DNA from: Malacoraja senta | Taxonomy: Eukaryota | DNA length: 64,000 nucleotides | NCBI GenBank assembly: GCA_038087875.1 | Contig: CM075994.1 | Span: 3,040,001-3,104,000 of the forward strand | Direction: 5' to 3' | Shown: in pieces, positions 2,790-55,993 of the stretch | Layout: each line of letters begins with the position of its first letter | Numbering within the stretch: position 1 is the stretch's first letter | Program-made: the position numbers and the translations under genes | Notes under the pieces: model-generated | Databases searched by the model: none | The model's input: only the letters and a program-made list of their open reading frames with translations | What the model was told of the DNA's origin: nothing

Positions 2790-3233
2790 GTGATGTAATT
2801 ATTGGAACGTTTTAACTTATTTCCTTCTGATAATTTGCTCTGAAAAGTTTTTAAGACTTTCGCATTCTGAAAAGTACCGATAGCTCGTTGGACAGCTGAC
2901 GAAAACACCAGGTGTTAGATATATGACGCAAAAATATATAACTAAAATTATTAGCAGGGCCACTAATATTTCAATGGACTGATATATCTACCTACAACTT
3001 AGTAGTTATTTCATTCCCACAGTTACTCATCTGAATTGCCAAATAATTTGAGCATATGGTTTCCTTTCAAACGCAAAACTCCGCGCACGCAGCGAATTGT
3101 TGGTCAAGTGCCCCTCAATACAGTCGGATATGTGGTTCTGTGCTGCAGCGCAGATGTTCCGCATGGCATAAAATGAGAGGAGTGTTTTTTCTCTTCTTCT
3201 TTCAATGCAAATTCACGCACTTTGTCCTTTTAG

Positions 3234-12120: not shown

Positions 12121-12531
12121 GTTCAGCATTTCCGAGAAATGTTCCTTAGACCGTTAGTCTACACCCAAAACAAAATTCGGAAATAAATCTGCAAGCAATG
12201 TTATGACTTCCTGCGGGATGTTAACAGGTCCACTGGACCAAATGACATTCTTCCCTGTTCAGCATTTCCGAGAAATGTTCCTTAGACCGTTAGTCTACAC
12301 CCAAAACAAATTTCGGAAATAAATCTGCAAGCAATGTTATGACTTCCTGCGGGATGTTAACAGGTCCACTGGACCAAATGACATTCTTCCCTGTTCAGCA
12401 TTTCCGAGGAATGTTCCTTAGACCGTTAGTCTACACCCAAAACAAATTTCGGAAATAAATCTGCAAGCAATGTTATGACTTCCTGCGGGATGTTAACAGG
12501 TCCACTGGACCAAATGACATTCTTCCCTGTT
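12121..12531. repeat. Tandem repeat, 3 x 136 bp, near-identical
   Basis: Unit gttcagcatttccgag...gacattcttccct starts at 12121, 12257 and 12393. Confidence 0.95.
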
Positions 12532-17510: not shown

Positions 17511-17748
17511 ACAGCTTTACAAAATATATGTATGATTTATACCACGGATGATTGAGTACAATAAATAGGTAATCAGATAAAACAATTGAGTTGACGTTGA
17601 AAATTGAAAGAAAACATTCGTGGATTAAAACAATTGGCAGTTATCGTGAATATATACAGAAAGGAGGATTCATAATTGAAGAACACAAATCGTATTAAAA
17701 TTCTTGATATCATATGAGTAGGTGAGATGAAAGAAAGGATTTGGTTAA

Positions 17749-17906
17749 TGTGATGTATGTAATATAATTAGCATATGTTATGTCTTGTGCGAGGGGACGC
17801 ATGCGCTGAAACTCAAGGTGGCGTCCTGGAATAAAGAAGTTTGTTAGTGTTCTCCCGTGTCCGAGTGTTATTTTGAAGTCAGTTCCAAGCACCCAAATAC
17901 ACAACA
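17749..17906 (+). repeat. 5' LTR (158 bp)
   Basis: TG...CA termini, internal AATAAA, followed by the PBS; roughly 90% similar by eye to 24704-24864. Confidence 0.9.
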
Positions 17907-18596
17907 ATTGGCGACGAGGATAAAAGAACAGAAAAGGAAAGAAGGACTGTCAAGAAAGAAAAAAGTTCAAGCGACGCGGTTGTGTTTGGAGACAAAGTGG
18001 AACGGCACCAAGCAAAAATTTGGCTCCAAATTGTTTTGAATTGGCACCAAAGAAAGTAAAGGTCGGGACGGGAATCAAGAGCGCAAGGAGAGCCAGTGAG
18101 ACAGTAATTAAGTATCACCGATGAACGCAGCCAAAACCTTGAGGACTAAACAGCAGGACAGCGACGGTGTCCAACTTACCTGGAACGTTTTCCAGGGCCG
18201 TGCAGCCACGGCAAAGGGGCAGAAGAGGCCCAGCAGCCGCCACCGACTTCGGGTGAGTTCCAGGGCCGTGTATCGTGTAGGCCACGGACAAGTCCAGTGA
18301 CCACACCGACTTCGAACGTTTTCCAGGGCTGTGCAGCCCACAGCCTGGCCCAAGCAGCAGCCACAGACGTCGGGTGAGGGCCTTGTACCGGGTAGGCCAC
18401 GGACAGGTCCGGAGAAGCCACCGATGAAAGAGGACCGTGTAGCCCACGGCCAGCCCCAGTAGCAGCCAAAGACGTCAGGTGAGGGCCTAGTATCGTGCAG
18501 GCCACGGACAGCTCCGGAGAAGCCACCGACGAAAGCCGAGTCTTCAGCCCGGTCGGTAGCAGAGACAGCCCGGTGGGAGGAGAACGCGGAGAAAGC

Positions 18597-21372
18597 AGGA
18601 GGGATAGAGAGAAATGAAAAGGAGGTGGGGTAGTGTTGCTGGTTAGAGAGGAGATTAACGCAGTGGAAAGGAAGGACATTAGCTTGGAGGATGTGGAATC
18701 GGTATGGGTAGAGCTGCGAAACACTAAGGGGCAGAAACCGCTGGTGGGTGTTGTGTACAGGCCACCTAGCAGTAGTAGTGAAGTTGGGGATGGCATCAAA
18801 CAGGAAATTAGAAATGCGTGCAACAAAGGCAAAACAGTTATAATGGGTGACTTCAATCTATATATAGATTGGGTGAATCAATTTGGCAGGGGAGCTGAGG
18901 AAGAGGATTTCTTGGAATGTATGCGGGATAGTTATCTAAACCAACATGTAGAGGAACCAACGAGAGAGCAGGCTATTCTAGACTGGGTATTGAGTAATGA
19001 GGAAGGGTTAGTTAGCAGTCTTGTTGTGCGTGCCCCCTTGGGCAAGAGTGACCATAATATGGTTGAGTACTTCATTAGGATGGAGAGTGACATTGTTAAT
19101 TCAGAAACAACGGTTCTGAACTTAAAGAAAGGTAACTTTGAGGGTATGAGACGTGAATTGGCCAAGATTGACTGGCAATTATTTCTAAAAGGGTTGACGG
19201 TGGATATGCAATGGAAGGCATTTGAAGACTGCATGGATGAACTACAAAAATTGTTTATCCCAGTTTGGCAAAAGAATAAATCAGGGAAGGTAGTGCATCC
19301 GTGGATAACAAGGGAAATCAGGGATAGTATCAAAGCAAAAGATGATGCGTACACATTAGCCATAAAAAGCAGCATACCAGAGGACTGGGAGAAATTCATA
19401 GACCAGCAGAGGAGGACAAAGGGCTTAATTAGGAAAGGCAAAATAGATTATGAAAGAAAACTGGCAGGGAACATAAAAACTGACTGCAAAAGTTTTTATA
19501 GATATGTGAAGAGAAAGAGATTAGTTAAAACAAATGTAGGTCCCTTGCAGTGAGAAACAGGTGACTTGATCATGGGGAACAAGGATATGGCGGAACAATT
19601 GAATAACTACTTTGGTTCCGTCTTCACTATGGAAGACATAAATAATCTGCCGGAAATAGCAGGGGACCGCGGGTCAAAGGAGATGGAGGCACTGAGTGTA
19701 ATCCAGGTTAGTCGGGAAGTGGTGTTGGATAAATTAAATAGATTAAAGGCCGATAAATCACGAGGGCCAGATAGGCTGCATCCCAGAGTACTTAAGGAAG
19801 TAGCTCCAGAAATAGTGGATGCATTAGTGATAATTTTTCAAAACTCTTTAGATTCTGGAGTAGTTCCTGAGGATTGGAGGGTAGCAAACGTAACCCCACT
19901 TTTTAAGAAGGGAGGGAGAGAGAAAACGGGGAATTACAGACCAGTTAGTCTAACATCGTTAGTGGGGAAACTGCTAGAGTCAGTTATTAAAGATGCGTTA
20001 GCAGCACATTTGGAAAGTGGTGAAATCATTGGACAAAGTCAGCATGGATTTACCAAAGGTAAATCATGTCTGACGAATCTTATAGAATTTTTTGAGGATG
20101 TAACTAGTAGAGTGGATAGGGGAGAACCAGTGGATGTGTTGTATCTGGACTTTCAGAAGGCTTTCGACAAGGTCCCACATAAGGGATTAGTATACAAACT
20201 TAAAGCACACGGTATTGGGGGTTCAGTATTGATGTGGATAGAGAACTGGCTGGAAAACAGGAAGCAAAGAGTAGGAGTAAACGGGTCCTTTTCACAATGG
20301 CAGGCAGTGACTAGTGGGGTACCGCAAGGCTCAGTGCTGGGACCCCAGCTATTTACAATTTATATTAATCATATGGATGAGGGAATTGAAGGCAACATCT
20401 CCAAATTTGCGGATGACACTAAGCTGGGGGGCAGTATTAGCTGTGAGGAGGATGCTAGGAGACTGCAAGGTGACTTGGATAGGCAGGGTGAGTGGGCAAA
20501 TGTTTGGCAGATGCAGTATAATGTGGATAAATGTGAGGTTATCCACTTTGGTGGCAAAAACAGGAAAGCAGACTATTATCTAAATGGTGGCCGATTAGGA
20601 AAAGGGGAGACGCAGCGAGACCTGGGTGTCATGGTACACCAGTCATTGAAAGTAGGCATGCAGGTGCAGCAGGCAGTGAAGAAAGCGAATGGTATGTTAG
20701 CTTTCATAGCAAAAGGATTTGAGTATAGGAGCAGGGAGGTTCTACTGCAGTTGTCGTCTTGCTACTTGTATTTCTACTGCAGTTGTACTCCAGGTGTGGT
20801 AATGGTGAGACCACACCTGGAGTATTGCGTGCAGTTTTGGTCTCCAAATCTGAGGAAGGACATTATAGCCATAGAGGGCAGAGAAGGTTCACCAGACTGA
20901 TTCCTGGGATGTCAGGACTTTCATATGAAGAAAGACTGGATAGACTTGGCTTATACTCGCTAGAATTTAGGAGATTGAGAGGGGATCTTATAGAAACGTA
21001 CAAAATTCTTATGGGGTTGGACAGGCTAGATGCACGAAGATTGTTCCCGATGTTGGGGAAGTCCAGGACAGGGGGTCACAGGTTAAGGATAAGGGGGGAA
21101 ATCCTTTAAGACCGAGATGAGAAAAAACTATTTCACACAAAGAGTGGTGAATCTCTGGAACTCTCTGCCACAGAGGGTTGTTGAGGCCAGTTCATTGGCT
21201 ACATTTAAGAGGGAGTTAGATGTGGCCCTTGCGGCTAAAGAGATCAGGGGGTATGGAGAGAACGCAGGTACGGGATACTGAGTTGGATGATCAGCCATGA
21301 TCATATTGAATGGCGGTGCAAGCTCAAAGGGCCGAATGGTCTACTCCTGCACCTATTTTCTATGTATCTATG
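18597..21372 (+). mobile_element. Young 5'-truncated CR1 (family A) nested in the LTR element
   Basis: ORFs 18633-19553 (EN; IMGDFN, SDHNMV) and 19566-20900 (RT; SKFADDTK); 3' tail tttctatgtatctatgta. Confidence 0.95.
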
Positions 21373-22478
21373 TAAAGGCCGGTCGCGCGAGAAACGGCAG
21401 AGAGCCGAGAACGCCCGGTTGCAAGAGACGGCCGAGAGCGGGGAAAGCCCGGACGTGAGAGGAAATCCGGCCCCGAGTGAAGAGTGGGACCGCGCGAGAG
21501 AAGCAGGACACAGCACTCAAGCACACAGCACAAAGCACTTGGGCCGATTGAGAAGGCCGGCCGCGCAAGAGAAGCGGACCGGCCGAGTGAGAAGCCGGCC
21601 GAGAGCGAAGCGGGTCCGCGGAAGGGAAGCGGGACATAGCGCTTACCCAGCCCCGCCGGCGGGGTACAGTCCCGACGCGAGAGAAAGCCGGACGAGGGAG
21701 AAGCGGGTCCGCGCGAGAGAAGCGGGACACAGTGCTTACCCAGCTCCCGACGGCAGGGCACAATCCCGAAAAGCGGAGCAGCCAGGCGGGCCGTGGAGCC
21801 AGCAACGAGCCGAGCAGCGGGGCCCAGCAGAGTGACGCCGCGCAGTGGAGCCAGCGACGGGCGGAGTAGCGGGGAGCCAGAGACTCGCCTTCCGCAGGGC
21901 GTGCACGGGAGACAGCAGGAAAGTAAATCGGCGGAGTAGCGGATGTCGGCGACAGCCAGAAGAGCAGTGAAGCTAGCGGTGGCCCGGGAGGCCCGGTGGA
22001 GGGAGTGGAGGCAGCAGCAGAGGTCCGGAGTGGCCTACATTAACGGTATACTCAAGAGAAGGTCCGGAGAATGCTCCAGCATCTTCAAAAGTAACGGTGG
22101 GGACAGTTCGAGAGGTCGAGGAGGCGCCGGAGTCCATAGGCCGACAAGCCTGACCGGTGAATTCCTTCAAAGCAAAAGTGGGACTGTTGAACGTAATGCA
22201 TTGTTCGCTATTCCTTCACAGTAAAAGCGGGACTGTTTGGATTTAATGCATGGGTCACGGTTATTAATACTAAATCTGTGTACATAGCAGGAATATGGTT
22301 TAAATTGTTCTAGTTGGCTATTAAAATGGAGGTTGGTTATTAGTATACATCTATCATTATAAGAAGTGGAAATAGTCAGTGGGCTGGATCACTTCTTAGT
22401 GTGTAAAAGGATTAAGTCCAGTGCAGAAAACACAGTGACAGAACAGAACATAGTGCACCTGAATAGCAACAGGGTAGC

Positions 22479-22650
22479 ATGACTTTTTTTAATTGGAGGA
22501 AAGGTGCCCCAGTAAGATTCTGGGTCTAATTTTGAGGAATGGACTGTATTCTTGGAGGCATGTTTCATTTCCAATTATATCACTGCAGATGAGAAGAGGA
22601 GAGCATGGTTCATATTAGGCTTAGGAAGAGAGTGTTATCAGACCTTACCT
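22479..22650 (+). pseudogene. Gypsy Gag N-terminal remnant
   Basis: Manual translation IGGKVPQ*DSGSNFEEWTVFLEACFISNYITADEKRRAWFILGLGRECYQTL resembles Gypsy (Mag-like) Gag N-termini. Confidence 0.65.
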
Positions 22651-22759
22651 ACAAAGTGAGAAAAGTCAAGTGCCAAGTGACAAAGGTCAAAGGCAAAGGA
22701 AAAAAACTCAAATGCCAAGTGACAAAGGTCAAAGGCAAAGGAATAAAAGTCAAATGCAT

Positions 22760-23980
22760 AGGTGCATTGCCATCCAGAGTGCAACCCTAACTATTCAAGC
22801 TGCATTCTAGGGTATGAAGGTACGGAGAGAGATTTGGAACAAACAGAAGGCAGCAACGATAATACAAGCAGCATTTAGAATGCACAGAGTAAACCGTCCA
22901 CACAGGGCAATGAGATTGGCAGCTATAATAGTACAAACCCATTATAGGGCACACATTCAAATGTAAAGTGATCGCAAGACATACATGACGGTACACAGCA
23001 GTGTTGTGCTGCTTCAGGCTGCATATCGAGGAATGCTTGTTCGAATGCAATTGCTGTGCATGCACAAATCTGCCAAGATCATACAGACTTATTTTCAGAT
23101 GCACAAATAGCGTCAGTGTTTCAAGAAACTACGCTGATCTGCCATTGCGGCACAGCAACGATACAGAGCTTGCCAGATAAGAGATGTCCAAGTGAGACAA
23201 TATAATAGTTTGAGAAAAACTGTGGTTTGTATTCAGGCCTTCTACCGCGCGATTAAAGCCAGAGAATTGGTTGAAAAAATCAAGGCTGCACGCTGTATGA
23301 AGTCATTCTTAATGACGTGCATTATAAGAAAACATGTATTGATAAAAACGCGGCTGTAGTCACTCTGCAAATGCATATCGTGATTACCGATCAAAGGTAC
23401 GTTACAGAGCTATGCTACAAGCAGTCATTTCGAACCAGAGTTGATACAAAGCATGTAAAATAGGACATTCCAAGTGTGTGCAATATCAGTCCATGAGGTA
23501 TGTTTCTATTACCATTCAGACTGCCTACAAGGATGTGGTGGTAAGGCAATGGGTTATGCAAAAGAGAGCTACTATAAAAAGGCAGTCAGTGCTCCGTATG
23601 AGTTGGAATAGGAAAGACTTCCTCAAACTGCATTATACAGCAGTTATAGTGCAGTCTCACTACCGTGCTTATAAAGCAAGAAAACTATACGGTGCACAAA
23701 TCAAAGCCACTGTTGTTTTGCAAATACAATATAGATCTTACATGTTGATGAAGAACCAGAGATGTGACTTCACTGGACAAATAGATGAATAACAGAAAAG
23801 GCTTAAACGATACAAAAGGCTTAAACGATATACGACAGACTTCCTCAAACTGAAATATACCGCAATTGTAGTGCAGTCCCACTACCTTGCTTATGAAGCA
23901 AGAAAACTATACAGAGCGCAATTCAATGCCACTATTGTTTTGCAAAGACAATATAGATCCTACTTCTTGATGAATAACCA
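22760..23980 (+). pseudogene. ASPM: Captured ASPM-like IQ-motif array with stops and frameshifts
   Basis: Manual translation: IQAAF*GMKVRR, IQAAFRMHR, VQTHYRAH, LQAAYRGMLVR, IQTYFQMHK, AQQRYRA, IQAFYRAIKAR, IQTAYK, VQSHYRAYKAR, LQIQYRSY. Spacing and motif style resemble the large IQ exon of ASPM. Confidence 0.75.
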
Positions 23981-24703
23981 GAAAGGTAATTTAAGAAGAC
24001 AAATAGATGAACAACAGAAAAGGATTAAATGGTACAAAGAACGATTAAATACATGTGTGACGATGAGCAAAAAGGTGTTAAAAGAAAAGTCTAATGAAGA
24101 GAGGCTTGTCGGTCGAGACAAAACAATGCAGGACCGATTGCGATTAGGACACTCACTTTAGTCCAGCATGGAGCCTCCTACACTGAGCAATGGACAAATG
24201 GTTATGCATTGCAGAATGTCATTAAACAACAAGAGCAGATAAATACGCAGCGAATGGAAATTGAACAACAGGGGAAGTTGCTAGAAAACGAAAACTTGCA
24301 GCCATGGGTCAGATCCCATCTACAAAGAGGAAACCAAAGCAAATACATGAACCAGAAAATGAAACGCAGAATATCAGGAACAGGAATAAATTTGCAAATT
24401 AGATTAGGACATTTAAAAGGGAAGAAGCAGAGATACATGCAGAGCTAGAGGGATTAGAATGTGTTAGCAATGTATACATAAATGAGCGGAAAATGATAAC
24501 ACATAAAGCAAGTGGTAATGTATTTGGTTTAAGGAAGATGAGTGGAATGAAAAATTATATGCTAAGTTTAGATACCATTATTACAGTTATGATGATGTAA
24601 TTTAAGATGTCCGCAATAATACAATTTTGCAACAGTGTGTTAATCAATTATATTTAATGTAATATAAATGGTGTTATCCGCCTCCAATTTAAAGTGGGAG
24701 CAG

Positions 24704-24864
24704 TGTGATCTATGTAATATAATTAGCATATGTTATGTCTTGTGCGAGTGGACGCATGCGCTGAGGAGAATCGAGGTGGCGTCCTGGTATAAAGAAGCGT
24801 GTTTGTGTACTACCGTGTCCGAGTGTTATTTTAAAGTCAGTTCCAAGCACCCAAATACACAACG
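24704..24864 (+). repeat. 3' LTR (161 bp)
   Basis: Direct repeat of 17749-17906, preceded by the purine-rich tract; ends CG rather than CA. Confidence 0.9.
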
Positions 24865-25558
24865 GGTAACTTCAAGATAAATTGCAAATTGCAAAAGTCA
24901 AGGATGAACACAGTGCCGAAGACCGCTTGCATAAAACATAGTCGGTTATGCACAGTGATACTTTTAACGCTGGTGCTGTGTAAATAGAAAACTTAATAAA
25001 TGTTAACGTGTCTGAATTATAGTCGTTCCAAACTGCTTCCGCTGCAATCACATATCGAATGAGTTCTCAATTCATCGTTTCTTCATAAGCTCTCTATGAA
25101 TACTTAATTCGACATCGCTAAAATTCCAGTTTTTACATAATAATCTCAATGCTAAAGCGGCCTTTGATTTCGTTTTAGATTTTTTTTTGCCCAATGTAGA
25201 TTTTCTTCCGTACATGCCACAATTCTAGAATATGAATATCGTAATTTTATGATGTCAGATAATTCTGTGTACCTGCTACTTTTTATTTAATTTACCATTT
25301 CATGTGACATTGAACGACGATACGCGAAGTACTTTCCAATCGGATTTTTGCAGAAAATTAATCTACTTCAATCTCCAGAATGTCAAAGTTTTCATCGTTC
25401 TAGATGGCGAGATTATATCTATACTTCACGAAACATGTTGTGTGGATTTCTGCGTTCCTTCTGCTTCCTATAGTGCACCTACTATTGCCACCTTTGTTTG
25501 TTCTGGAATTAAACCTTAACATATAGCAGTTAATTAACTCGAAATGTTTGCCTTTAAG

Positions 25559-31209: not shown

Positions 31210-34200
31210 GTGAGGAAGCCGCTGATTGGTGGAAGAGGACAAAGAGAAAGCAGCTGATTGGTGGAAGAGGACAAAGAGGAAGCAGCTGATTGGGAGTCAG
31301 ATCCCTGCTGATTTCCTCCACCAGTTTTGTATTGTATCCAGGGTAAGGGGGGAGTATGAGGGCCAGGGCAGTTTACTGTTCTGGATGTCAGATGTGGGAG
31401 GTCATGGAGTCTGATAGCCCTCCAGACGTTCACATCTGTGTCAGGTGCGTAGAGATGGGGTTCCTAAGGGACCGTGTTAGGAACCTGGAGCAGCAGCTCG
31501 ATGACCTCTGTCTGATCAGGGTGAGTGAGGAGGTCATAGAAAAGAGGTATAGAGAGGTGGCCACTCCAAGACCACGGGAGGCAGACAAGTGGGTCACGGT
31601 TAGGAAGGGCAAGGGGCAGAGGCAGGGACTAGTGAGTACCCCGGTGGCTGTACACCTTGAAAATAAGTACTCCTGTTTGAGTACTGTTGAGGGGGACAGC
31701 CTTCCTGCGGGTAGCAACAGCGGCCGGGCCTCCGGCACAGAGACCAGCCCTATTGCTGAGAAGGGTAGGGAAAAGAAGAGGAGGGCAATAGTAATAGGGA
31801 ACTCTATGGTTAGGGGGTCGGATAGGCGATTCTGTGGACGCAGTCAGGAGACCCGAATGGTAGTTTGCCTCCCTGGTGCCAGGGTCAGGGATGTGTCTGA
31901 ACGCGTCCAAGATATCCTGAAATCGGAGGGAGAGGAGCCTGAGGTTGTGGTACATATAGGTACCAATGACATAGGTAGAAAAAGAGAAGAGGTCTTGAAA
32001 GGAGAATTTAGGGAGTTGGGAGGAGAGTTAAGGAGAAGGTCTACAAAGGTAACAATCTCAGGATTACTACCTGCGCCACGTGACGGTGAGAGTAGGAATG
32101 GAGTGAGGTGGAGGATAAATGCGTGGCTGAGGAACTGGTGCAGCGGGCAGGGATTCAAATTTCTGGATCATTGGGATTTATTTTGGGGAAGGAGTGACCT
32201 GTACAGAAAGGACGGGATGCACTTGAACCCGAGGGGGACCAATATCCTGGCGGGGAGATTTGCAAAGGCTATTGGGGAGACTTTAAACTAGAACGGTTGG
32301 GGGGAGGGACTCAAATAGAGAAAGCTAGTGGAAAATGTGGGAGGCAGGAGGCAGAGAGGGGAAGCACTCGGACCCAAAATGTAGGGGAGAAAGAAGAAAA
32401 AGATAATAAACAGAGAATAAGTGGTGGTGGGTTTCTTAAATATGTATATTTTAATGCTAGGAGCATTGTAAGAAAGGTGGATGAGCTTAGAGCCTGGATT
32501 GACACCTGGAAGTATGATGTTGTGGCGATCAGTGAAACATGGTTGCAGGAGGGCTGTGATTGGCAAATAAATATTACAGGATTTCGTTGCTTCAGGGGTG
32601 ATAGAATTGGAGGGGCAAGAGGTGGGGGTGTTGCATTGCTTGTCAAGGAAGATATTACAGCAGTGCTTTGGCAGGGTAGATTAGAGGGCTCGTCTAGGGA
32701 GGCTATTTGGGTGGAATGGAGAAATGGGAAACGGTATTCACGAAGGAGAAGGATATGGAATTATGTGAGGTGAGGGAAACAAGCAGAGTAGCAATGGAAA
32801 CTGTGAGATTCAAAGAAGAGGAGGTGCGGACACCTTTGAAAAATATGAAAACGGATAAGTCTCCAGGTCCTGACAAGATATTCCCTAGGACATTGAGGGA
32901 AGTTAGTGTAGAAATAGCAGGGGCTATGACAGAAATATTTCAAATGTCATTAGAAACGGGAATAGTGCCGGAGGATTGGTGTACTGCGCATGTTGTTCCG
33001 TTGTTTAAAAAGGGTTCGAAGAGTAAACCTAGCAATTATAGACCTGTTAGTTTGACGTCAGTGGTGGGCAAATTAATGGAAAGGATACTTAAAGATAATA
33101 TATATAAGCATCTGGATAAGCAGGGTCTGATTAGGAACAGTCAACATGGATTTGTGCCTGGAAGGTCATGCTTGACTAATCTTCTTAAATTTTTCGAAGA
33201 GGTTACTAGGGAAATTTATGAGGGTAAAGCAGTGGATGTTGTCTGTATGGACTTCAGTAAGGCCTTTGACAAGGTTGCTCATGGAAGGTTGGTTAAGAAG
33301 ATTCAATTGTTGGGTATTAATGGTGGAGTAGCAAGATGGATTCAACAGTGGCTGAATGGGAGATCCCAGAGAGTAATGGTGGATGGCTGTTTGTCAGGTT
33401 GGAGGCCAGTGACTAGTGGGGTGCCTCAGGGGTCTGTGTTGGGTCCACTGTTGTTTGTCATGTACATCAATGATCTGGATGAAGGTGTGGAAAATTGGAT
33501 TAGTAAGTATGCAGATGATACTAAGATAGGTGGTGTTGTGGATAATGAAGTAGATTTCCAAAGTCTACAGAGAGATTTAGGCCATTAGGAAGAGTGGGCT
33601 GAAGGATGGCAGATGGAGTTTAATGCTGACAAATGTGAGGTGCTACATCTCGGCAGGACAAATCAAAATAGGACGTACACGGTAAATGGTAGCGAATTGA
33701 GGAATGCAGTTGAACAGAGGGATCTAGGAATAACTGTGCATAGTTCCCTGAAGGTGGAATCTCATGTAGATAGGGTGGTAAAGAAAGCTTTTGGTGTGCT
33801 GGCCTTTATAAATCAGAGCATTGAATATAGAAGTTGGGATGTAATGTCAAAATTGTACAAGGCATTGGTGAGGCCAATTCTGGAGTATGGAGTACAATTT
33901 TGGTCGCCTAATTATAGGAAGCATGTCAACAAAATAGAGAGAGTACAGTGGAGATTTACTAGAATGTTGCCTGGGTTTCAGCAACAAGTTACAGAGAAAG
34001 GTTGAACAAGTTAGGTCTTTATTCTTTGGAGCGCAGAAGGTTAAGAGGGGACTTGATAGAGGTCTTTAAAATTATGAGCGGGTTAGACAGAGTGGACGTG
34101 GATAAGCTTTTCCCATTGAGAGTAGGGAAGATTCAAACAAGGGGACATGACTTGAGAATTAAGGGAGAGAAGTTTAGGGGGAACATTAGGGGGGACTTCT

Positions 34201-34547: not shown

Positions 34548-36550
34548 CATATAACCAAATGTTGACTGTTCCTAATCAGACCCTGCTTATCCAGATGCTT
34601 ATATATATTATCTTTAAGTATCCTTTCCATTAATTTGCCCACCACTGACGTCAAACTAACAGGTCTATAATTGCTATGTTTACTCTTCGAACCCTTTTTA
34701 AACAACGGAACAACATGCGCAGTACGCCAATCCTCCGGCACTATTCCCGTTTCTAATGACATTTGAAATATTTCTGTCATAGCCCCTGCTATTTCTACAC
34801 TAACTTCCCTCAATGTCCTAGGGAATATCCTGTCAGGACCTGGAGACTTATCCGTTTTCATATTTTTCAAAAGTGTCCGCACCTCCTCTTCTTTGAATAT
34901 CAGTTTCCATTGCTACTCTGCTTGTTTCCCTTACCTCACATAATTCCATATCCTTCTCCTTCGTGAATACCGAAGAAAAGAAATTGTTCAATATCTCCCC
35001 CATCTCTTTTGGGTCTGCAGATAGCTGTCCACTCTGACTCTCTAATGGACCAATTTTATTCCTTGTAATCCTTTTGCTATTAATATAGCTGTAGAAACCC
35101 TTTGGATTTACTTTCACCTTACTTGCCAAAGCAACCTCATATCTTCTTTTAGCTTTTCTAATTTCTTTCTTAATATTCTTTTTACATTCTTTATACTCCT
35201 CAAGCACCTCATTTACTCCATGCTGCCTATAATTATTGTAGATATCTCTCTTTTTCCGAACCAAGTGTCCAATTTCCCTTGAAAACCATGGCTCTTTCCA
35301 TTTTTTACTATTTCCTTTCAACCGAACAGGGACATAAAGATTCTGTACTCTTAAAATTTCACCNNNNNNNNNNNNNNNNNNNNNNNNNNNNNNNNNNNNN
35401 NNNNNNNNNNNNNNNNNNNNNNNNNNNNNNNNNNNNNNNNNNNNNNNNNNNNNNNNNNNNNNNNNNNNNNNNNNNNNNNNNNNNNNNNNNNNNNNNNNNN
35501 NNNNNNNNNNNNNNNNNNNNNNNNNNNNNNNNNNNNNNNNNNNNNNNNNNNNNNNNNNNNNNNTTTTCAAATTCATTATCCACAGCCCCACCTATCTTAG
35601 TATCATCTGCATACTTACTAATCCAATTTACCACACCATCATCCAGATCATTGATGTACATGACAAACAACAGTGGACCCAACACAGATCCCTGTGGCAC
35701 CCCACTAGTCACTGGCCTCCAACCTCACAAACAACCATCCACCTCTCTGGCATCTCCCATTCAGCCACTGTTGAATCCATCTTGCTACTCCACCATTAAT
35801 ACCCAACCATTGAAACTTTTTAACCTACCTTCCGTGAGGAACCTTGTCAAAGGCCTTACTGAAGTCCATATATACAACATCCACGGCTTTACCCTCATCA
35901 GTTTCCCGAGTAACCTCTTCAAAAAATTCAAGAAGATTAGTCAAACATGACCTTCCAGGCACAAATCCATGTTGACTGTTCCTAATCAGCCCCTGTTTAT
36001 CCAGATGCGTATATATATTATCTCTAAGTATCCTTTCTATTAATTTGCCCACCACTGACGTCAAACTAACAGGTCTATAATTGCTAGGTTTACTCTTAGA
36101 CCCCTTTTTAAACAATGGAACAACATGCGCAGTACGCCAATCCTCCGGCACTATTGCCGTTTCCAATGACATTTGAAATATTTCTGTCATAGCCCTTGCT
36201 ATTTCTACACTAACTTCCCTCAATGTCCTAGGGAATGTCCTGTCCGGACCTGGAGACTTATCCACTTTTATATTTCTCAAATGTGTCAGTACTTCCTCTT
36301 CTTTGAATCTCATAGTTTCCATAGCTACTCTACTTGTTTCCCTTACCTCACATAATTCAATATCCTTCTCCTTGGTGAATACCGAAGAAAAGAAATTGTT
36401 CAATATCTCCCCCATCTCTTTTGGCTCTGCAGATACCTGTCCACTCTGACTCTCTAATGGACCAATTTTATCCCGCGTTATCCTTTTGCTATTAATATAG
36501 CTGTAGAAGCCCTTTCGATTTACTTTCACCTTATTTGCCAAAGCAACCAC
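34548..36550 (-). mobile_element. CR1 family B fragments, minus strand, on both sides of the assembly gap
   Basis: ORFs 34493-34882, 34848-35591, 35359-35712 and 35825-36763 match family B ORF2. Confidence 0.9.
35364..35563. other. Assembly gap (200 N)
   Basis: Run of n. Confidence 1.
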
Positions 36551-38473: not shown

Positions 38474-40470
38474 GATCTACCCTTCTCCCTCTCCAATTGT
38501 AGATTATAACTGACCATGTTATGGTCACTACCTCCAAATGGCTCATTCACCTCGAGGTCCTTTATTAAAACCCGTTCATTACATAACACTAAATCCAGAA
38601 TTGCCTTCTCCCTGGTAGGCTCCAATACAAGCTGTTCTAAGAATGCCTCACGAAGGCACTCTGCAAAGTCCCTTTCTTGGGGATCAGTATCAACCTGATC
38701 ATCCCAGTCTACCTGCACGTTAAAATCTCCCATAACATCCACAGCATTATTTTTGCTACATGCCATTTTTTACTCCTGATTCAACGCGCTCTATGTCCAG
38801 GCTACTGTTTGGAGGCCTGTAGATTACTCCCATTAGGGTCCTTTTACCCTTACAATTCCTTAGTTCTATCCAAACTGACTCCACATCTCCTGTTTCAATG
38901 TCACCCCTTGCAAGGGACTGAATTTCATTCCTCACCAACAGAGCAACCTCACCCCCCCTGCCCACCTGTCTGTCTCATCGAAAGGAGGTATCCCCTTGAA
39001 TATTCAGTTCCCAGCTCTGGCCCTATTGCAGCCATGTCTCACTAATTCCCACAACATCATTGTTACCCGTTTATAACTGAGCCTCAAGCTCGTGCACTTT
39101 ATTCCTTATACTTCGCGTATTCATAAACTGCACTTTGCCCTCCGTATTCACTTCCCCCCTCGCACCGCTCGCAATTGGCCCTGAGCTTACTCTGTTGTCC
39201 CTTCTCGAGATTTCCTTCTCGAGCTTTCCATCCCATTAATTCGATAATCTTTAGTGATTTTTCCTGTAGCCACTTCACCTTCAACTCCATCTTTAGACTC
39301 CCAATTTGTCAATCCCTCCTCCCATTCTTTAGTTTAAATCCACACGTGTAACGCTAACAAACCTGCCTGCCATAATGTCGGCCCCCCTCCAGTTGAGGTG
39401 CAACACGTTCCTTTCGTACAGGTCACCCCTACCCCAGAAGAGATCCCAGTGGTCTATAAATCTAAATCCTTTCTCCCTGCACCAGTCCCTCGGCCACACA
39501 TTCAGATCCCCTACCTCCCTGTTCCTTTCCTCACCAGCACGAGGTACTGGAAGCAATCCAGAGATAACCAACCTAGAAGTCCGGCATTTCAGTCTTCTTC
39601 CCAACTCTCTGAACTCATGTTGGATAACCTCCTTCCACTTCTTCCCTATGTCGTTTGTGCCTACGTGCACAACTACTGTCGGCTATTCACCTACTCTCTC
39701 GAGGATGTTCTGTATTCGGCTCGTGGCATCCTGAACCCTGGCACCAGGGAGGGAACAGACCATCCTCGCGTCTCGTCTGCCCCCACAGAACCTCTTGTCC
39801 GCTCCTCGAACAATGGGGTCTCCCACCACGAGGGTTCTGCCCGATGTCGGTCTCGCCGGTCGAGTCCCATCTCTAGGATTGGAGCCATAGATGTGTCCGC
39901 CGCTCGGACAGGAAACATCGTCTCCCCGGACAGTTCCCAAGAGGGCGTACCTGTTATCATTAGGCACAGCCACCTGGGTCTTTTGCACTGCACGATTTAT
40001 ACCCTTTCTCTCCGGCACACACCTTGGTTCTTCCCGTATCCTCGGCGTGACTACCACCTTGTAGGTCCTGTCCAGGTTTTCCCGGATTGCCCTGACTTCA
40101 TCCAGTGCCCCAACACGTTCCTTTAGGAGCTGAAGGTGGAACCACTTGCCACAGGTGTAGCAGCCAGAGGTTCCATCCGTGTCCCTGGGCTCCACCATTC
40201 TGCAAGCCTCACATTGTCACATCTGCCACGGCATGTGGTCACCGCGTTCTGTGCTCTCGAGATTTATGCGTAGCCTCCTCTCGTCAGCCTCCTCGCCGAA
40301 GAATCTCGAGCCAAAGACACACACTTTACTCACAAGGCACTTCCAAAGAGGCACACTTTACTCATAAGGTTGCTCCCTCACTGCCGCTCCCAAAGAGCCG
40401 TCTTTCTTATATTGACTGATAAATTGCCTAATTTACCAATTTACCAATTTACAAACCAGATTCCTAAGTT

Positions 40471-41112
40471 TTAAACTGTTTCCCCCCCTGACTCACTTCT
40501 AACTCGCCTCCCACTCGGGCTACAGCAAATCAGTGCTTTTTCCTGCTACTCTTTGCTGTTGTTTCTTCAAAATCTACGGAAGCACTGAGTTTCGTCTGTC
40601 TATGTTTTGCCGCTCTTTTTAAACTGTTTTACACCTCTGACTCACTGCTAACTCTCCTCCCATCGGGCTACAGCGAATCAGTGCCTTTTCCTGCTTTTCT
40701 TTGCTGCTGTTTCTTCAAAATCCTCGGAAGCACTGAGTTAAGTCTGTCTGTGTGTTGACGCTCCTTTTAAATTGTTTCCCCCCTCTGACTCACTTTTAAC
40801 TCTCCTTCCACACGGGTTACAGCCAATCAGTGCTTTTTCCTGCTTCTCTTTGCTGCTCTTTATACAAAATCCACGAAAGCTCTGAGTTCTGTGTGTGCTT
40901 TGCCGCTCTTTTTAAACAGTTTTACCCCTCTGACTCACATCTAACTCTGCTCCCACTCGGGCTACAGCAAATCAGTGCTTTTTCCCGCTTCTCTTTGCTG
41001 CTGTTTCTTCCAAATCCACGGAAGCTCTGAGTTAATTCTGACTGTGTTTTGCCGCTCTTTTTAAACTGTTTTCCCCAACTGACTCACTTCTAACTCTCCT
41101 CCCACTCGGGCT
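40471..41112 (-). repeat. About 4.3 x ~148 bp tandem monomers at the CR1 5' end
   Basis: Unit ttaaactgtt...ctgactcacttctaactc...cgggctacagc starts near 40471, 40619, 40767, 40912 and 41061. Confidence 0.9.
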
Positions 41113-51582: not shown

Positions 51583-52564
51583 TTACACAGAACTTAAAAT
51601 AGTTTGTGCAAACAATCCCGCATTGACAATAGGCCGATGGTAAAACTGTTGAAACATCAACTCATTGGACCACCCGGCGGCTGCGAGAATATGGTCGACG
51701 GGGACGTCTTTCGCCCTGGCCGCCGACGTTGCTGCTGCCCTAGACGAGTGAGACGTAAAAACATCAGTGTTAATACCAGCAGCTGTTAAGACTTCTTTCA
51801 ACCATCTTGAAATAGTCTGTACTGAGACTCTTTTGTGTGATTTCTTGTGTGTGATAAACAACCCAGTTTCCGTATTTCTCAAAACCTTTGTGACCTCAAT
51901 GTATTGTAACAAATATGCCTTAATACAGAGACAAGGATCATTTGGATATGCTGCTAGCACAAGGTTAAATCCTGTCACACCTGGCGTACTTTGCTTTAGT
52001 AGGTCATAAATATAGAATTTAACATTATCTTCAGTTACTTCCATCCTGTCTATTTGTAATTTTTGAAATGTCTGCACTCGTTGTGCTGTCACTAATGCCA
52101 TAAGCATGACCACTTTCATACTGAGTTTGGCCAAAGGCAAAGACACACTTGGTGACCATTCACGAAGTAGCTTCAGAACCACACTCACATCCCAGATTGT
52201 CATGTACATCGGCTTAGGAGGTCTGGAATTAAAAAATTCCTTTCATTAGTCTGGAGACAAGTGGGTGAGACCCAATTGGATTTATTTCTGAATCCACAAC
52301 CAAATATGAGGACAATGCACTTCTGGCTGAATTAATTGCACTATAACTCAAGCCTTTATCATAATAAAGTGTTGACAGAAATTCTAATACATTTGAAATA
52401 TCTGCCGTACTGTATTCAACATTCTTTTGTACACAGAACTCTTCCCATTTCTTAATATAAGAAAGGTACTGTTTTTGAGTGCTCTTCCTCCAGGCTGCCG
52501 TAAGCATGTCCACAGTACGCTCAGATAGTCCGCGCCCCAGAAAAGGCCTTCTTAAAACCTGCAA
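51583..52564 (-). pseudogene. DIRS tyrosine recombinase, split by a frameshift
   Basis: N-terminal domain AWRKSTQKQY...YSAINSARSALS; catalytic domain AQRVQT, HSSRAAATS (HxxR) and AAGWS...FQQFYHR. Confidence 0.9.
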
Positions 52565-54400
52565 ATCAACAAATCCAAACGATCATATAATGGATGTTGT
52601 TCCCCTGTCACCGGGTGCAGCAGTAGATTGCTTCTTTTTGGGACTTTCATCAAAGTTTGTGTCGTTAATTCTAATATTAAAGGATACCATGGCTGTGTAG
52701 GCCAATCTGGTACCAACATTACCCCTGAAGCAGCATCGTGCCTGATTTTAAGCAAACATCGGCTTATGAGGCAGAAAGGTGGAAATGCATATAAAAACAT
52801 ACCACCCCAATGTAGCGAGAAAGCATCAACCGCTACTGCTCCTGGATCTGGTTCCCATGACACATATCTCGATAGTTGATGATTTAGTCTAGATGCGAAC
52901 AAGTCGATGTCTGGCATTCCAAATCTGATTATTATGTCATTGAATACCTCTCGATTTAACATCCATTCTTTATTATCATGGAACTTTCTTGATCTGGTGT
53001 CTGCTGTCGTATTCCATCTACCTGGTAGATGAATAGCTGAAATCCAAATATTATTTTCGATACACCAAGACCAAATTTGATTATCCATTTTGTCACATGA
53101 CCGACTTGATTCCACCCATATGATTAATATAGGCAACTGCTGTTGTGTTATCAATTTGAACTTGAACATGCAGATTAGTTGGGTTAGAACAGTAAGCTTG
53201 GAGTCCATAGAAACATCCTAAAAGCTCCAAATAGTTAATTCCCCATGTCTGCAGTAACAATGACTCTTCCTGATTCCATTTGCCTCCGCAGCTGGATGCT
53301 AAGTCAGTTGCACCCCATCCTAGTGCACTGGCATCAGTTTGTAATATCATGGAAGGTTGTTCAATCAGTACTTTGCTGAAAATGCTTGAGACATGTAGAA
53401 TCCACCACTGCAGATCAGAAACAGCATTTGTTGTTAGTTGCATGGTTCTATCAAAATGACCAGCATTCATCCTCAGTGCCTGTTCTTTAATTCTCTGCAG
53501 CTGTTGATAATGTAATGGCCCGTATTGGACTGCTGGGAATGCTGCTACTAATTTTTCCAGTACTCTAGACACCTCTCCGATGGAAGGTTTTTGCTCGTTT
53601 AGCAGATTTCTGCAATCTTCAATCAACTCCACCCTTTTTTCTCTGGGCAAAGTAATTTTCATTTGAACTGAATCAACTGTGAACCATAAATAATCAATTG
53701 AGGTACATGGTATTAACATTGATTTCTTTGGATGAATTAGAAACCCCAGAATTTCAAAAGTGGATTTCACAATTGAAACAGATGATTCTGTTGACTCCTT
53801 TGTCCTTCCTCTAATCAGGACATCATCCAAGTATGCCATTAGTACATGCCCCTGGCTTCTCAGCAACCCCAAAATTGATTTTAACAATTTGGTGAATATT
53901 CTGGGAGCTGAAGTTAACCCATTAGGCAGAGCTTTCAACTGCTATAACTGGTTCATCCAGGTAAATTTAAGATACGTCCTATCTTCCAAATGAACAGACA
54001 ATGAATAATATGCATCTTTTAGATCTATAGTTGCCATATAACATGCTTCTGAAATAAGCTGCTTGGCAGTCACAAACGTCTCCATTTTTAAATGTCTAAA
54101 CTGAACAAAAGGATTCAGACTTGTCAAGTCTAGAATAATCCTACATCCTCCATCTTTTTTTGATCGAGGGAATACATTTGACACAAATTGTTGAGTTTGA
54201 TAAATTCATTTTTCAATAACACCTTTTTTATATAGGTTTTCGAGTGCAGCTTGAACCTCCATTACTTCTTTTTGTGCAAAGTGGAGAATTCTGCTAGGAA
54301 CATGCTGGACAGGCACATCATAATTTGGATTGAATTCATTTCGAAATCCTTGTATACTATTCAGAATTACAGGATCTGAAGTAATCTGCTTCCAATCTTT
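52552..54400 (-). pseudogene. DIRS pol: RT, RNase H and adenine-methyltransferase-like domain (stop near 53942, frameshifts)
   Basis: IDLKDAYY, LPNGLTSAPRIFTK, YLDD, QTDASALGWGA, INYLELL, DNTTAVAYINHMGG, IDLFASRLN, YAFPPF and PDWPTQPWY. Confidence 0.92.
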
Positions 54401-55659
54401 ATAGAAGAGATGTAATCTGCCTCCAACTGTTGGGGTTAATCCCCGTTAGTATATTCCCATGAGAACCAGGTCCACCTACCTCCTGTGCCATTTGAGTGCC
54501 CTGTGGTCCCTGGATTCTCCCGGGAGGACCCACACCGGTTCTTGCTCCCGCTGCAGGTCGCCAGCTACGTCCCTGCGATGATGAGCGACTTGGTCCTGGT
54601 CCAGGATCAGTATGACGTCTGAAAGGATACCTCCTCTTTACAGACTTTCCAACCATCGATGTTTTCATCAATCCGGCTGTTTTCGCTTCATCCTCCAACT
54701 CCTTAATACATCTCCCGAGATCCTCTCCAAAGAGTAAGTTGGGTAATTGAATATTACTTGGTTTGCAGAGTGCTGCGAATTTCGGATTGATAGTAGGCCG
54801 AATAACACCCTTCCTCAGACAATTGATCTCGAAGTGGGCGCTGCATAGCAACCCCAGTGCTTCCTGAAGCAACTCCGTCATCTCCTGGCTTCTATCCGTT
54901 ATTCTGGCAAAAGCATTTATTCCAGAACCCAGCAGCTTTAATATTCTCTGCAATTTTACTTCTTGAGCTCCCATAGTCATGCTCATCTGACTCCAGATCA
55001 CTTGATTCACTGCTGGTGCTTTCAACAACACACATTTACTTGGAGTTTCATGCTTTCTTGAAGTATCATCCATCTCCTGCTGTTCCAGCTGATGGGAAAC
55101 CAAGTAATTTATTAGGTAGGCCACTTCTTCTCCTAATGGCTCTCCTGATCCTGACGGGGCAGCGAATCGTGCTGCCAGAGGTGGAATATCTGGCAGCTGC
55201 AGTTCTTCGCCTTGTTCAGCCTCACCGTCAGAGTCGGGGTCTGAACTCTCATGACCCGGGGCACGCGCCTCACCCCTGAGGGTGCATTCCAACAGCCCTT
55301 TGCTAGGTGCTGCTGAGCTGCTTTCTGCAGCCTGGCTTTTGCTACACTCCTCACTGAGTGTGCTTTTTTCCAAAAGCCTGTGTATGAGGCTTTCCATTTG
55401 TGATATCCGCTCGAAAGCAGTATCCAGCCCTGGAGCTACCTCCATTGCCTGGGACACCTCCTCCGTGGGCCGTCTGGATTTGAACTTCGCCTTGCGCCCG
55501 ACTGGCGCTGACTGCGTTCTTTTCAGCCCCAAGTCCACAGTCGCGATGCTCACCGCTGGCGACTGTACTGGGGTCAGAGGCGGCTGGTCGCCGACCGCAA
55601 TATCGCGACTTTCTACCGGCTGAGTCGCCTCGCCTCCTCCCCTTGCCCGTTTTTTCCAT
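54399..55659 (-). pseudogene. DIRS Gag-like ORF1
   Basis: Long ORF upstream of RT (LKAPAVNQVIW, LLFGEDL). The probable ATG at 55659 is out of frame with the main ORF. Confidence 0.7.
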
Positions 55660-55993
55660 GGCGCCTGTGGAAAAAATCCCCACAGACCCATAGCAAACGG
55701 ACACGGAAATACTTTCAAAAAATGTATACTTACCTTGTAGTTAAAAACTACAATTCCACTAAAGGAGCTCTGCTCCTCGCGTCCATTTGCGCCAATGCGT
55801 GTGACGTAATGACGCGCAGGCGCACTGGCGGGGTTCTTCACGTAGTCACTCACGTGACTCCGAAGTAAAATAGGCACCATATGGTTGGATGTTAATTTAC
55901 CTTCGAAATACAAATTCGTAAAACAACAGGTTTTCAGCACACATTATCTGACTGAAAGTTATTCATCAGCATCATTTAGGAACTCAGTCCTTA

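Follow-up and report, generated by a model that had tools for sequence, protein, structure and literature searches.

A pol-less Gypsy family in a skate genome that carries captured ASPM and spliced TLK2 sequence behind a remnant of Gag

A 64,000-nt stretch of the Malacoraja senta genome (hereafter the window; assembly GCA_038087875.1, contig CM075994.1) contains, at 17749-24864, an LTR element in which an array of IQ motifs lies behind a remnant of Gag. The original prediction was that a Gypsy derivative had transduced part of a host mRNA resembling that of ASPM, and that it might once have encoded a Gag-IQ fusion protein. The locus raises the questions of what kind of element this is, from where its captured sequence was derived, and whether the protein that it may have encoded contributed to its spread.

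The element lies on the forward strand and is bounded by paired LTRs of approximately the predicted 160 bp (17749-17906 and 24704-24864) that are identical at 145 of 158 aligned bases; the ends are of the TG...CA type, with the 3' LTR of this copy ending in CG and that of most other copies in CA. Flanking the LTRs are GTTAA (17744-17748) and GGTAA (24865-24869), a target-site duplication that agrees at four of five positions. As predicted, a PBS-like motif, TGGCGACGAGG (17907-17921), directly follows the 5' LTR and a polypurine tract (PPT, 24688-24703) directly precedes the 3' LTR, and both share motif and position with pol-bearing relatives. The 5' UTR is made up of a first part with 105-nt repeats (17922-18596) and a second, repeat-rich part (21374-22478), divided by a nested, 5'-truncated CR1 LINE with endonuclease and reverse transcriptase (RT) that occurs in this copy only (18597-21373), and without which the element measures about 4.3 kb. 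There follow the broken N-terminal remnant of Gag (22479-22651), about 135 nt shorter at its 3' end than in other copies, a tandem linker (22652-22758) with a 21-nt (7-residue) unit arranged as 21/42-nt units, the IQ block (22759-23766), part of a 222-nt junction duplication (23767-23985), a tail (23986-24503), and a 3' UTR from the parent Gypsy family (24504-24687). Stops and frameshifts in the IQ block leave this copy disabled, as had been noted. Rfam and tRNA scans were empty.

No match to Gypsy pol was found in the window element at E ≤ 1, in agreement with the predicted absence of a recognisable protease, RT or integrase, and we therefore rejected an autonomous Gypsy element, given that protease, RT, RNase H and integrase are not encoded. 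Pfam found nothing in the Gag remnant of the window; the remnant, predicted at 22479-22650, was confirmed through the Gag of the family, which aligns across 80 aa, at 60% identity, with a Gag-Pol protein (P0278) of the RT-RNaseH-integrase order. A pol-bearing Gypsy family of the same genome (L085-L093) has LTR ends, PBS, PPT, 5' and 3' UTRs and the Gag N-terminus in common with the family described here (LTRs 74-81% identical, Gag 59-70%, PBS and PPT the same). It retains a complete Gag and pol, broken in those copies that were seen, and carries no ASPM or TLK2 sequence. The data support the window element as a copy of a pol-less Ty3/Gypsy LTR family, and uphold the proposed Gypsy derivation.

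Genome-wide we scored at least 150 copies. Perfect 5-bp target duplications flank 29 of 37 LTR-paired elements (16/23 and 13/14, three duplicate pairs included), and there are several subfamilies of differing structure, each with new insertions. Pol-like matches were present in the stretches of 6 of 79 copies examined, all of them 25-36% identical to P0278, five lying outside the LTRs or on the opposite strand and one within a 5' UTR. Because new target duplications arose without a pol of the family's own, it was very probably mobilised in trans by the pol-bearing family, whose members would have supplied the copying machinery.

The ASPM-like character of the array was borne out. Pfam recognised IQ in the block (E 5.7e-14 and 1.6e-6), eight IQ motif matches were counted in it, where 500 base shuffles gave 0.3 on average and never more than 4, and the top protein match was ASPM, the captured piece corresponding to approximately residues 2802-3142 of Amblyraja ASPM (P0161), or about 350 of 3,700 residues. 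In early-branching copies the block is 81-86% identical to skate ASPM, versus 66-69% to that of stingrays, and in a tree the element clade (98/92) is nested within the skate ASPMs (100/100). Taken together these comparisons identify a skate ASPM as the donor. The element as an ASPM gene or paralogue was rejected, since Pfam finds IQ alone, and not the ASH and CH domains, the full IQ array or the C-terminal repeats. An ASH family search, three protein stretches and a pattern search did not find the host ASPM gene in this assembly, which is not proof of its absence, and because host ASPM DNA was not found the changes in the ASPM piece are not polarisable. The first part of the block is strongly basic (40 K+R versus 6 D+E in 193 aa). 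The short duplicated linker that had been described is present, and its 7-residue unit was itself born from ASPM sequence.

A coiled-coil-like tail had also been described, and it proved to be a second captured gene. Pfam did not identify it, and a match to chain 5o0y_A (E 6e-50) did so as TLK2, of which it contains the coiled-coil region, the kinase domain lying outside the captured part. Given that five host exons (G000:C10:14380646-14388587) are joined in the element with their four GT-AG introns missing, TLK2 was captured from spliced mRNA. Thus the claim that part of a host mRNA was transduced holds for TLK2; capture at the RNA level is established for this donor only, because the ASPM piece spans no testable intron. 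Inheritance of the tail from the pol-bearing relatives was ruled out, except for its last 24 residues. Identity between the TLK2 pieces and the host gene ranges from 85 to 97%, crown copies having drifted from it by 8-15%. TLK2 is complete to both ends in only 42 of the 69 copies with TLK2 sequence, its middle is in another reading frame in most copies, and in one large subfamily it breaks off at about 255 or 389 nt, which shows the last TLK2 coil to be dispensable.

Short sequences appear to be common to the two sides of the switch points: about 10 of 13 nt (raw match) where TLK2 meets the 3' UTR, TGTG between ASPM and TLK2, and Gln codons between Gag and ASPM, the ASPM side being read back from protein. 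The duplication of the ASPM/TLK2 junction consists of a short TLK2 start followed by the ASPM end again. Capture in all likelihood proceeded by template switching, at short shared sequences, inside a particle. It was reasonable to consider instead that the IQ block was an independent ASPM retrocopy inserted in an old LTR element, given that the window copy does carry a later insertion, the CR1. However, the block sits at the same junction in 76 of 79 copies, which occupy different sites, and it is joined directly and in frame, with no poly-A and no target duplication of its own; these shared junctions refute the proposal almost beyond doubt.

Both donors were in their native frame at capture. 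In 21 of 79 copies the frame that opens at the Gag start extends into the IQ motifs, so the Gag-IQ fusion that was predicted was once encoded, and ASPM is in frame with TLK2 in other copies; none of the 79 has a full-length frame, the longest from the Gag start being 477 aa. Early-branching copies keep the steps by which Gag was reduced, from Gag with zinc knuckles joined to ASPM, to the birth of the 7-residue linker, to the loss of the knuckles, leaving only about 85 residues of Gag and a short basic repeat. Lineages that succeeded nevertheless did without the knuckles, the middle of Gag or the last coil of TLK2. Two structure models of the parent Gag were of low confidence (pLDDT 45 and 42) and a fold search was without match, and the capsid-domain borders therefore rest on weak Pfam hits.

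Changes inherited by several copies were compared with private ones after removal of five near-identical duplicates. In TLK2, polarised against the host gene, inherited changes were 25 nonsynonymous to 20 synonymous and private changes 167 to 41 (Fisher p 0.0009), with a stratified ratio (relative dN/dS) of 0.39 (p 0.009). With all blocks pooled the relative dN/dS was 0.59 (p 0.011), at a six-copy threshold set after the fact, and neither Gag (p 0.40) nor ASPM (p 0.09) was significant singly. The frame-shifted TLK2 middle gave no comparable signal (11:1), and the three recurrent indel haplotypes of TLK2 sum to +3, -24 and -30. None of 82 clade-defining changes was a stop, versus 53 of 920 private ones (p 0.018), and two non-CpG stop calls are common to 8-9 copies. 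A first, tree-based test of nonsynonymous against synonymous changes did not reach significance (pooled p 0.27; for ASPM the ratio was about 0.9). Inherited changes thus include fewer amino-acid changes than private ones, and these counts argue that selection probably acted on the protein in replicating lineages.

The reading that we favour, and consider reasonably likely, is that the window element is a disabled member of a pol-less Gypsy family with a Gag-start/ASPM/spliced TLK2 frame, that pol-bearing relatives copied it, and that the fusion protein was made and was selected during the spread of the family. As to its action, we propose tentatively that the protein may have worked in cis on its own RNA, the Gag stub entering helper particles, with the basic IQ rod and TLK2 coils replacing the RNA grip and self-association once provided by the deleted parts of Gag. 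Calmodulin binding or spindle targeting of the fusion is possible. A more elaborate proposal, which we think unlikely, is that a Gag mostly rebuilt from host parts, as a selected protein of stub, ASPM calmodulin-binding rod and TLK2 coil, would load the RNA of the element into helper particles and steer those particles to the spindles or chromatin of germ cells in division.

On the other hand, the protein might have been without use, the captured pieces having arrived open, the master lineages having been short-lived, and an open frame perhaps shielding the RNA from decay. The non-significant tree-based test, the parts lost in successful lineages and the displaced frame of the TLK2 middle are all consistent with this, but an excess of synonymous changes among inherited ones, limited to TLK2 in the host frame, is unexpected if openness alone mattered, and we regard the proposal as rather unlikely. 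An advantage at the RNA level, in which sense fragments of two genes essential to cell division make piRNA silencing costly to the host or turn small RNAs on the donors, finds parallels in partial accounts of Drosophila telomeric elements with captured genes, which have higher copy number and piRNAs directed at the donor (PMC13534243), and of plant captured fragments that produce such conflict (PMC13317346), and the 85-97% identity of the TLK2 pieces to the host gene speaks for it. It predicts conservation of nucleotides, however, and not of amino acids or frame; ASPM and TLK2 are not silencing genes; and in the excerpted Drosophila account targeting is lost at about 80% identity, a level to be set against the drift of the crown copies (PMC13534243). 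We consider it improbable.

Less probable still is that a single copy became a domesticated chimeric gene of the host, the rest being its retrocopies and the constraint reflecting host function. A Leucoraja RefSeq gene model has the same structure (XP_055489032.1), and maize Bs1 has been called a functional hybrid gene in part of one report (PMC5131818), but the Leucoraja model is only 290 aa, 0 of 79 copies are intact, and subfamilies of differing structure were each inserted anew.

Literature searches found no paper on this skate family. Acutely transforming retroviruses with gag-onc fusions are a familiar analogy, being defective, helper-dependent genomes with a Gag stub on a piece of a host growth or division gene, whereas the present family is Gypsy, has no env, and captured non-catalytic rods. 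Multi-gene capture by LTR elements is already known, as the available excerpts of two reports describe. The LTR-mediated retrocopies that Tan et al. (2016) describe in animals are partial mRNAs between LTR-element ends with short junction similarity, several donors per element and further copying, and the partial donors, TLK2 intron loss and lack of poly-A or own target duplication in this family agree with them; those loci are described as young and single or low-copy, in contrast to the copy number, subfamilies, Gag-led frame and signs of constraint seen here (PMC5131818). Maize Bs1, also an LTR element, contains three gene pieces taken up by transduction, a hybrid frame and switch points common to all copies; it is a plant element of one to five copies in these excerpts, and differs from this far more numerous vertebrate family, in which both donors entered in native frame (PMC5131818, PMC13317346). 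Among vertebrates, the LTR elements CrocERV29 (KIT ligand) and CrocERV31 (nectin3) have captured host mRNA on which purifying selection acts, but they are retroviruses with one donor each, in 9 and 6 copies, whose captured frame lies after pol or in place of env, and fusion to Gag is not described in the excerpted account (PMC4299795).

The capture of genes by LTR elements is commonly viewed as a rare, low-copy event, and yet the present family, with at least 150 copies, goes back to a double capture. Given that the steps survive in one genome, it becomes possible to ask directly whether captured host domains raise transposon fitness. That the two donors both have roles in cell division suggests that they are abundant wherever the element replicates, or else that the cells in question are a setting in which their domains are useful. 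On a practical level, skate RefSeq labels these copies 'ASPM homolog' in error, and they will mislead efforts to map ASPM and TLK2 or to study their expression in skates.

The element at window positions 17749-24864 has the anatomy set out in the original prediction, with paired LTRs (145 of 158 aligned bases identical), a PBS-like motif, a purine tract and a nested CR1 bearing endonuclease and reverse transcriptase (~18597-21373), and is besides flanked by a near-perfect 5-bp target duplication. The IQ repeats were also borne out (Pfam E = 5.7e-14, above all 500 shuffles), as was the disabled state of this copy, which carries stops all along its length, single-base shifts near 22.84, 23.34, 23.37, 24.15 and 24.42 kb, and a Gag/linker border ~135 nt shorter than that of another copy. 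Elsewhere the window holds a DIRS-like element on the minus strand (51583-55943; Gag-like ORF, reverse transcriptase, a weak Dam-like methyltransferase match and tyrosine recombinase), a plus-strand CR1-type LINE (31347-33588) whose retained ORF1 encodes a GDSL esterase domain (E = 6e-14) ahead of reverse transcriptase sequence, tandem arrays at 12121-12531 (136 nt, 3 copies, 99%) and 40469-41112 (149 nt, 4.4 copies), and a run of N, which may be an assembly gap, between LINE fragments (~35170-35370).

ASPM had been proposed as the source of the IQ array, and ray ASPM was indeed the best match among 1.84 billion representatives. One natural copy matched Amblyraja ASPM 2793-3142 at 81% without large gaps, versus 66-69% for stingray and sawfish ASPM and 58-65% for shark ASPM, and identity to Amblyraja ASPM reached 86% in the earliest-branching copy. 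Ten element copies placed in a tree with 16 ASPMs formed a single clade (98/92) nested within the skate ASPMs (100/100). Given this nesting, ASPM was likely captured after skates split from other rays. Five queries of the species' own assembly found no host ASPM gene.

The coiled-coil-like tail that follows the IQ block proved to be a second captured gene, matching human TLK2 (chain 5o0y_A, residues 68-271) with E = 6e-50, or 1.8e-15 for the window's own tail. A pattern search of the assembly gave a single host locus with kinase motifs downstream, which we take to be TLK2 rather than TLK1 from the 5o0y match and the known features of TLK1. There, five exons separated by four GT-AG introns span 7.9 kb; in the element they lie end to end, window 23991-24503 matching them at 77-89% and two early-branching copies at 89-100%. 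Because the exons abut without the introns, the TLK2 piece was taken from spliced RNA, and the predicted capture of host mRNA thus holds for the tail. Six early copies differ from host TLK2 by 2.9-8.0%, later ones by ~8-15% and the window copy by 12%. The captured piece leaves out the kinase domain and presumably includes only the last part of the first coil, so that binding of the element protein to host TLK is doubtful. It is through this coil that human TLK2 dimerises (PMC6023931; PMC11879137).

The proposed genome-wide count, over 1.94 Gb, returned at least 150 copies with the Gag query (best 150 of 422 candidates scored), at least 150 with the tail (best 150 of 386) and at least 40 with the IQ DNA (best 40 of 269), raw counts that segmental duplication inflates. 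Gag is largely retained in 76 of 79 copies (78 fetched plus that in the window) and the ASPM block likewise in 76; 55 keep 100 or more tail residues. Both LTRs could be identified in 23 of 39 and 14 of 40 fetched stretches, with perfect 5-bp target duplications around 16 of the 23 (three duplicate pairs included) and 13 of the 14; LTR-to-LTR distance was 0.011-0.114 (median 0.039; window copy 0.087). Twelve further copies, at ~9.84-9.98 Mb of one contig and on unplaced contigs, were amplified with their flanks; the 5' LTR is absent from the stretch fetched, those compared are 94-99% identical over long stretches, and most carry in the IQ block an insertion that we take to be L1-like. The family is present in another skate assembly, since the Leucoraja RefSeq protein XP_055489032.1, there called 'ASPM homolog', consists of the Gag, linker and IQ parts of an element copy.

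The suggested Gypsy ancestry was upheld. The family Gag is 60% identical to that of a Gypsy Gag-Pol, and this protein as query found pol-bearing relatives with the same PBS and purine tract, LTRs 74-81% identical, Gag 59-70% identical and ~430 nt matching at the 3' end; the examined copies of these also carry breaks. Early-branching copies confirm a Gag-IQ fusion, reading Gag 1-85, an in-frame loss of ~116 residues, basic repeats and two zinc knuckles into ASPM. The first knuckle is kept in 4 of 79 copies and lost in the rest, the window copy included, and the 7-residue linker was born by duplication of an ASPM motif, visible in a later copy. The earliest copies already contain TLK2 and therefore do not show which of the two captures came first. 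Another Gypsy family, with LTR ends unlike those of this one, keeps Gag-Pol frames of ~1,350-1,380 aa open; a single copy that was checked has LTRs 98.5% identical, and the family was therefore probably active recently. In the 5' UTR of one subfamily, a 358-nt piece has an 85% match in a Gypsy family more distantly related, which suggests recombination between Gypsy families.

The test of dN/dS gave a divided answer. Private changes, which mostly arose after insertion, served as the neutral standard, and against them clade-defining changes did not differ significantly in N/S (p = 0.27), but included no stops (0/82 versus 53/920, p = 0.018). With changes common to at least six copies, a threshold set after that first test, CpG sites excluded and transitions and transversions stratified, relative dN/dS was 0.59 pooled (p = 0.011), and 0.67 for Gag (p = 0.40), 0.61 for ASPM (p = 0.09) and 0.47 for the tail (p = 0.05). 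When polarised against the host gene, inherited changes in the host-frame parts of TLK2 numbered 25 N:20 S and private ones 167:41 (Fisher p = 0.0009; stratified ratio 0.39, p = 0.009); the frame-shifted middle had 11:1. Frame is regained across that middle in 33 of 42 full-length copies; the three repeated indel haplotypes there have sums of +3, -24 and -30 and are only partly independent of one another. The distance between blocks is divisible by three in 42/68 and 35/45 copies, against 14/46 for the non-coding 5' region and 19/39 for the 3' region, the 21-nt unit being of single origin. Counting against selection are the late choice of threshold, two putative stops common to several copies, the loss of the end of TLK2 from a large subfamily, and the finding that none of the 79 copies examined is intact. 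As judged from these substitution patterns, constraint on the fusion protein would be moderate and short of what a conserved gene shows.

In line with the scheme of Tan et al. (PMC5131818), the captures very likely arose when templates were switched between the element RNA and mRNAs packaged alongside it; a short stretch of common sequence is visible where TLK2 meets the 3' UTR, and one is inferred at each of the two remaining junctions. Helper enzymes very likely spread the copies. As our best proposal, the fusion protein may have been a cis-acting packaging aid in which the basic IQ rod replaced the lost knuckles. ASPM IQ motifs bind calmodulin, and Aspm loss in the mouse depletes germ cells (PMC10047693), which makes a germ-line setting for the element in skates plausible.

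LTR elements that capture several genes are already in print, as Bs1 with one to five copies (PMC5131818); crocodilian ERV captures are reported under purifying selection (PMC4299795), and gene-capturing Drosophila elements reach higher copy numbers (PMC13534243). We found no published description of this skate family in the literature searched, which consisted mainly of open-access papers. The double capture of ASPM and TLK2 in a high-copy vertebrate LTR family is real and well supported.
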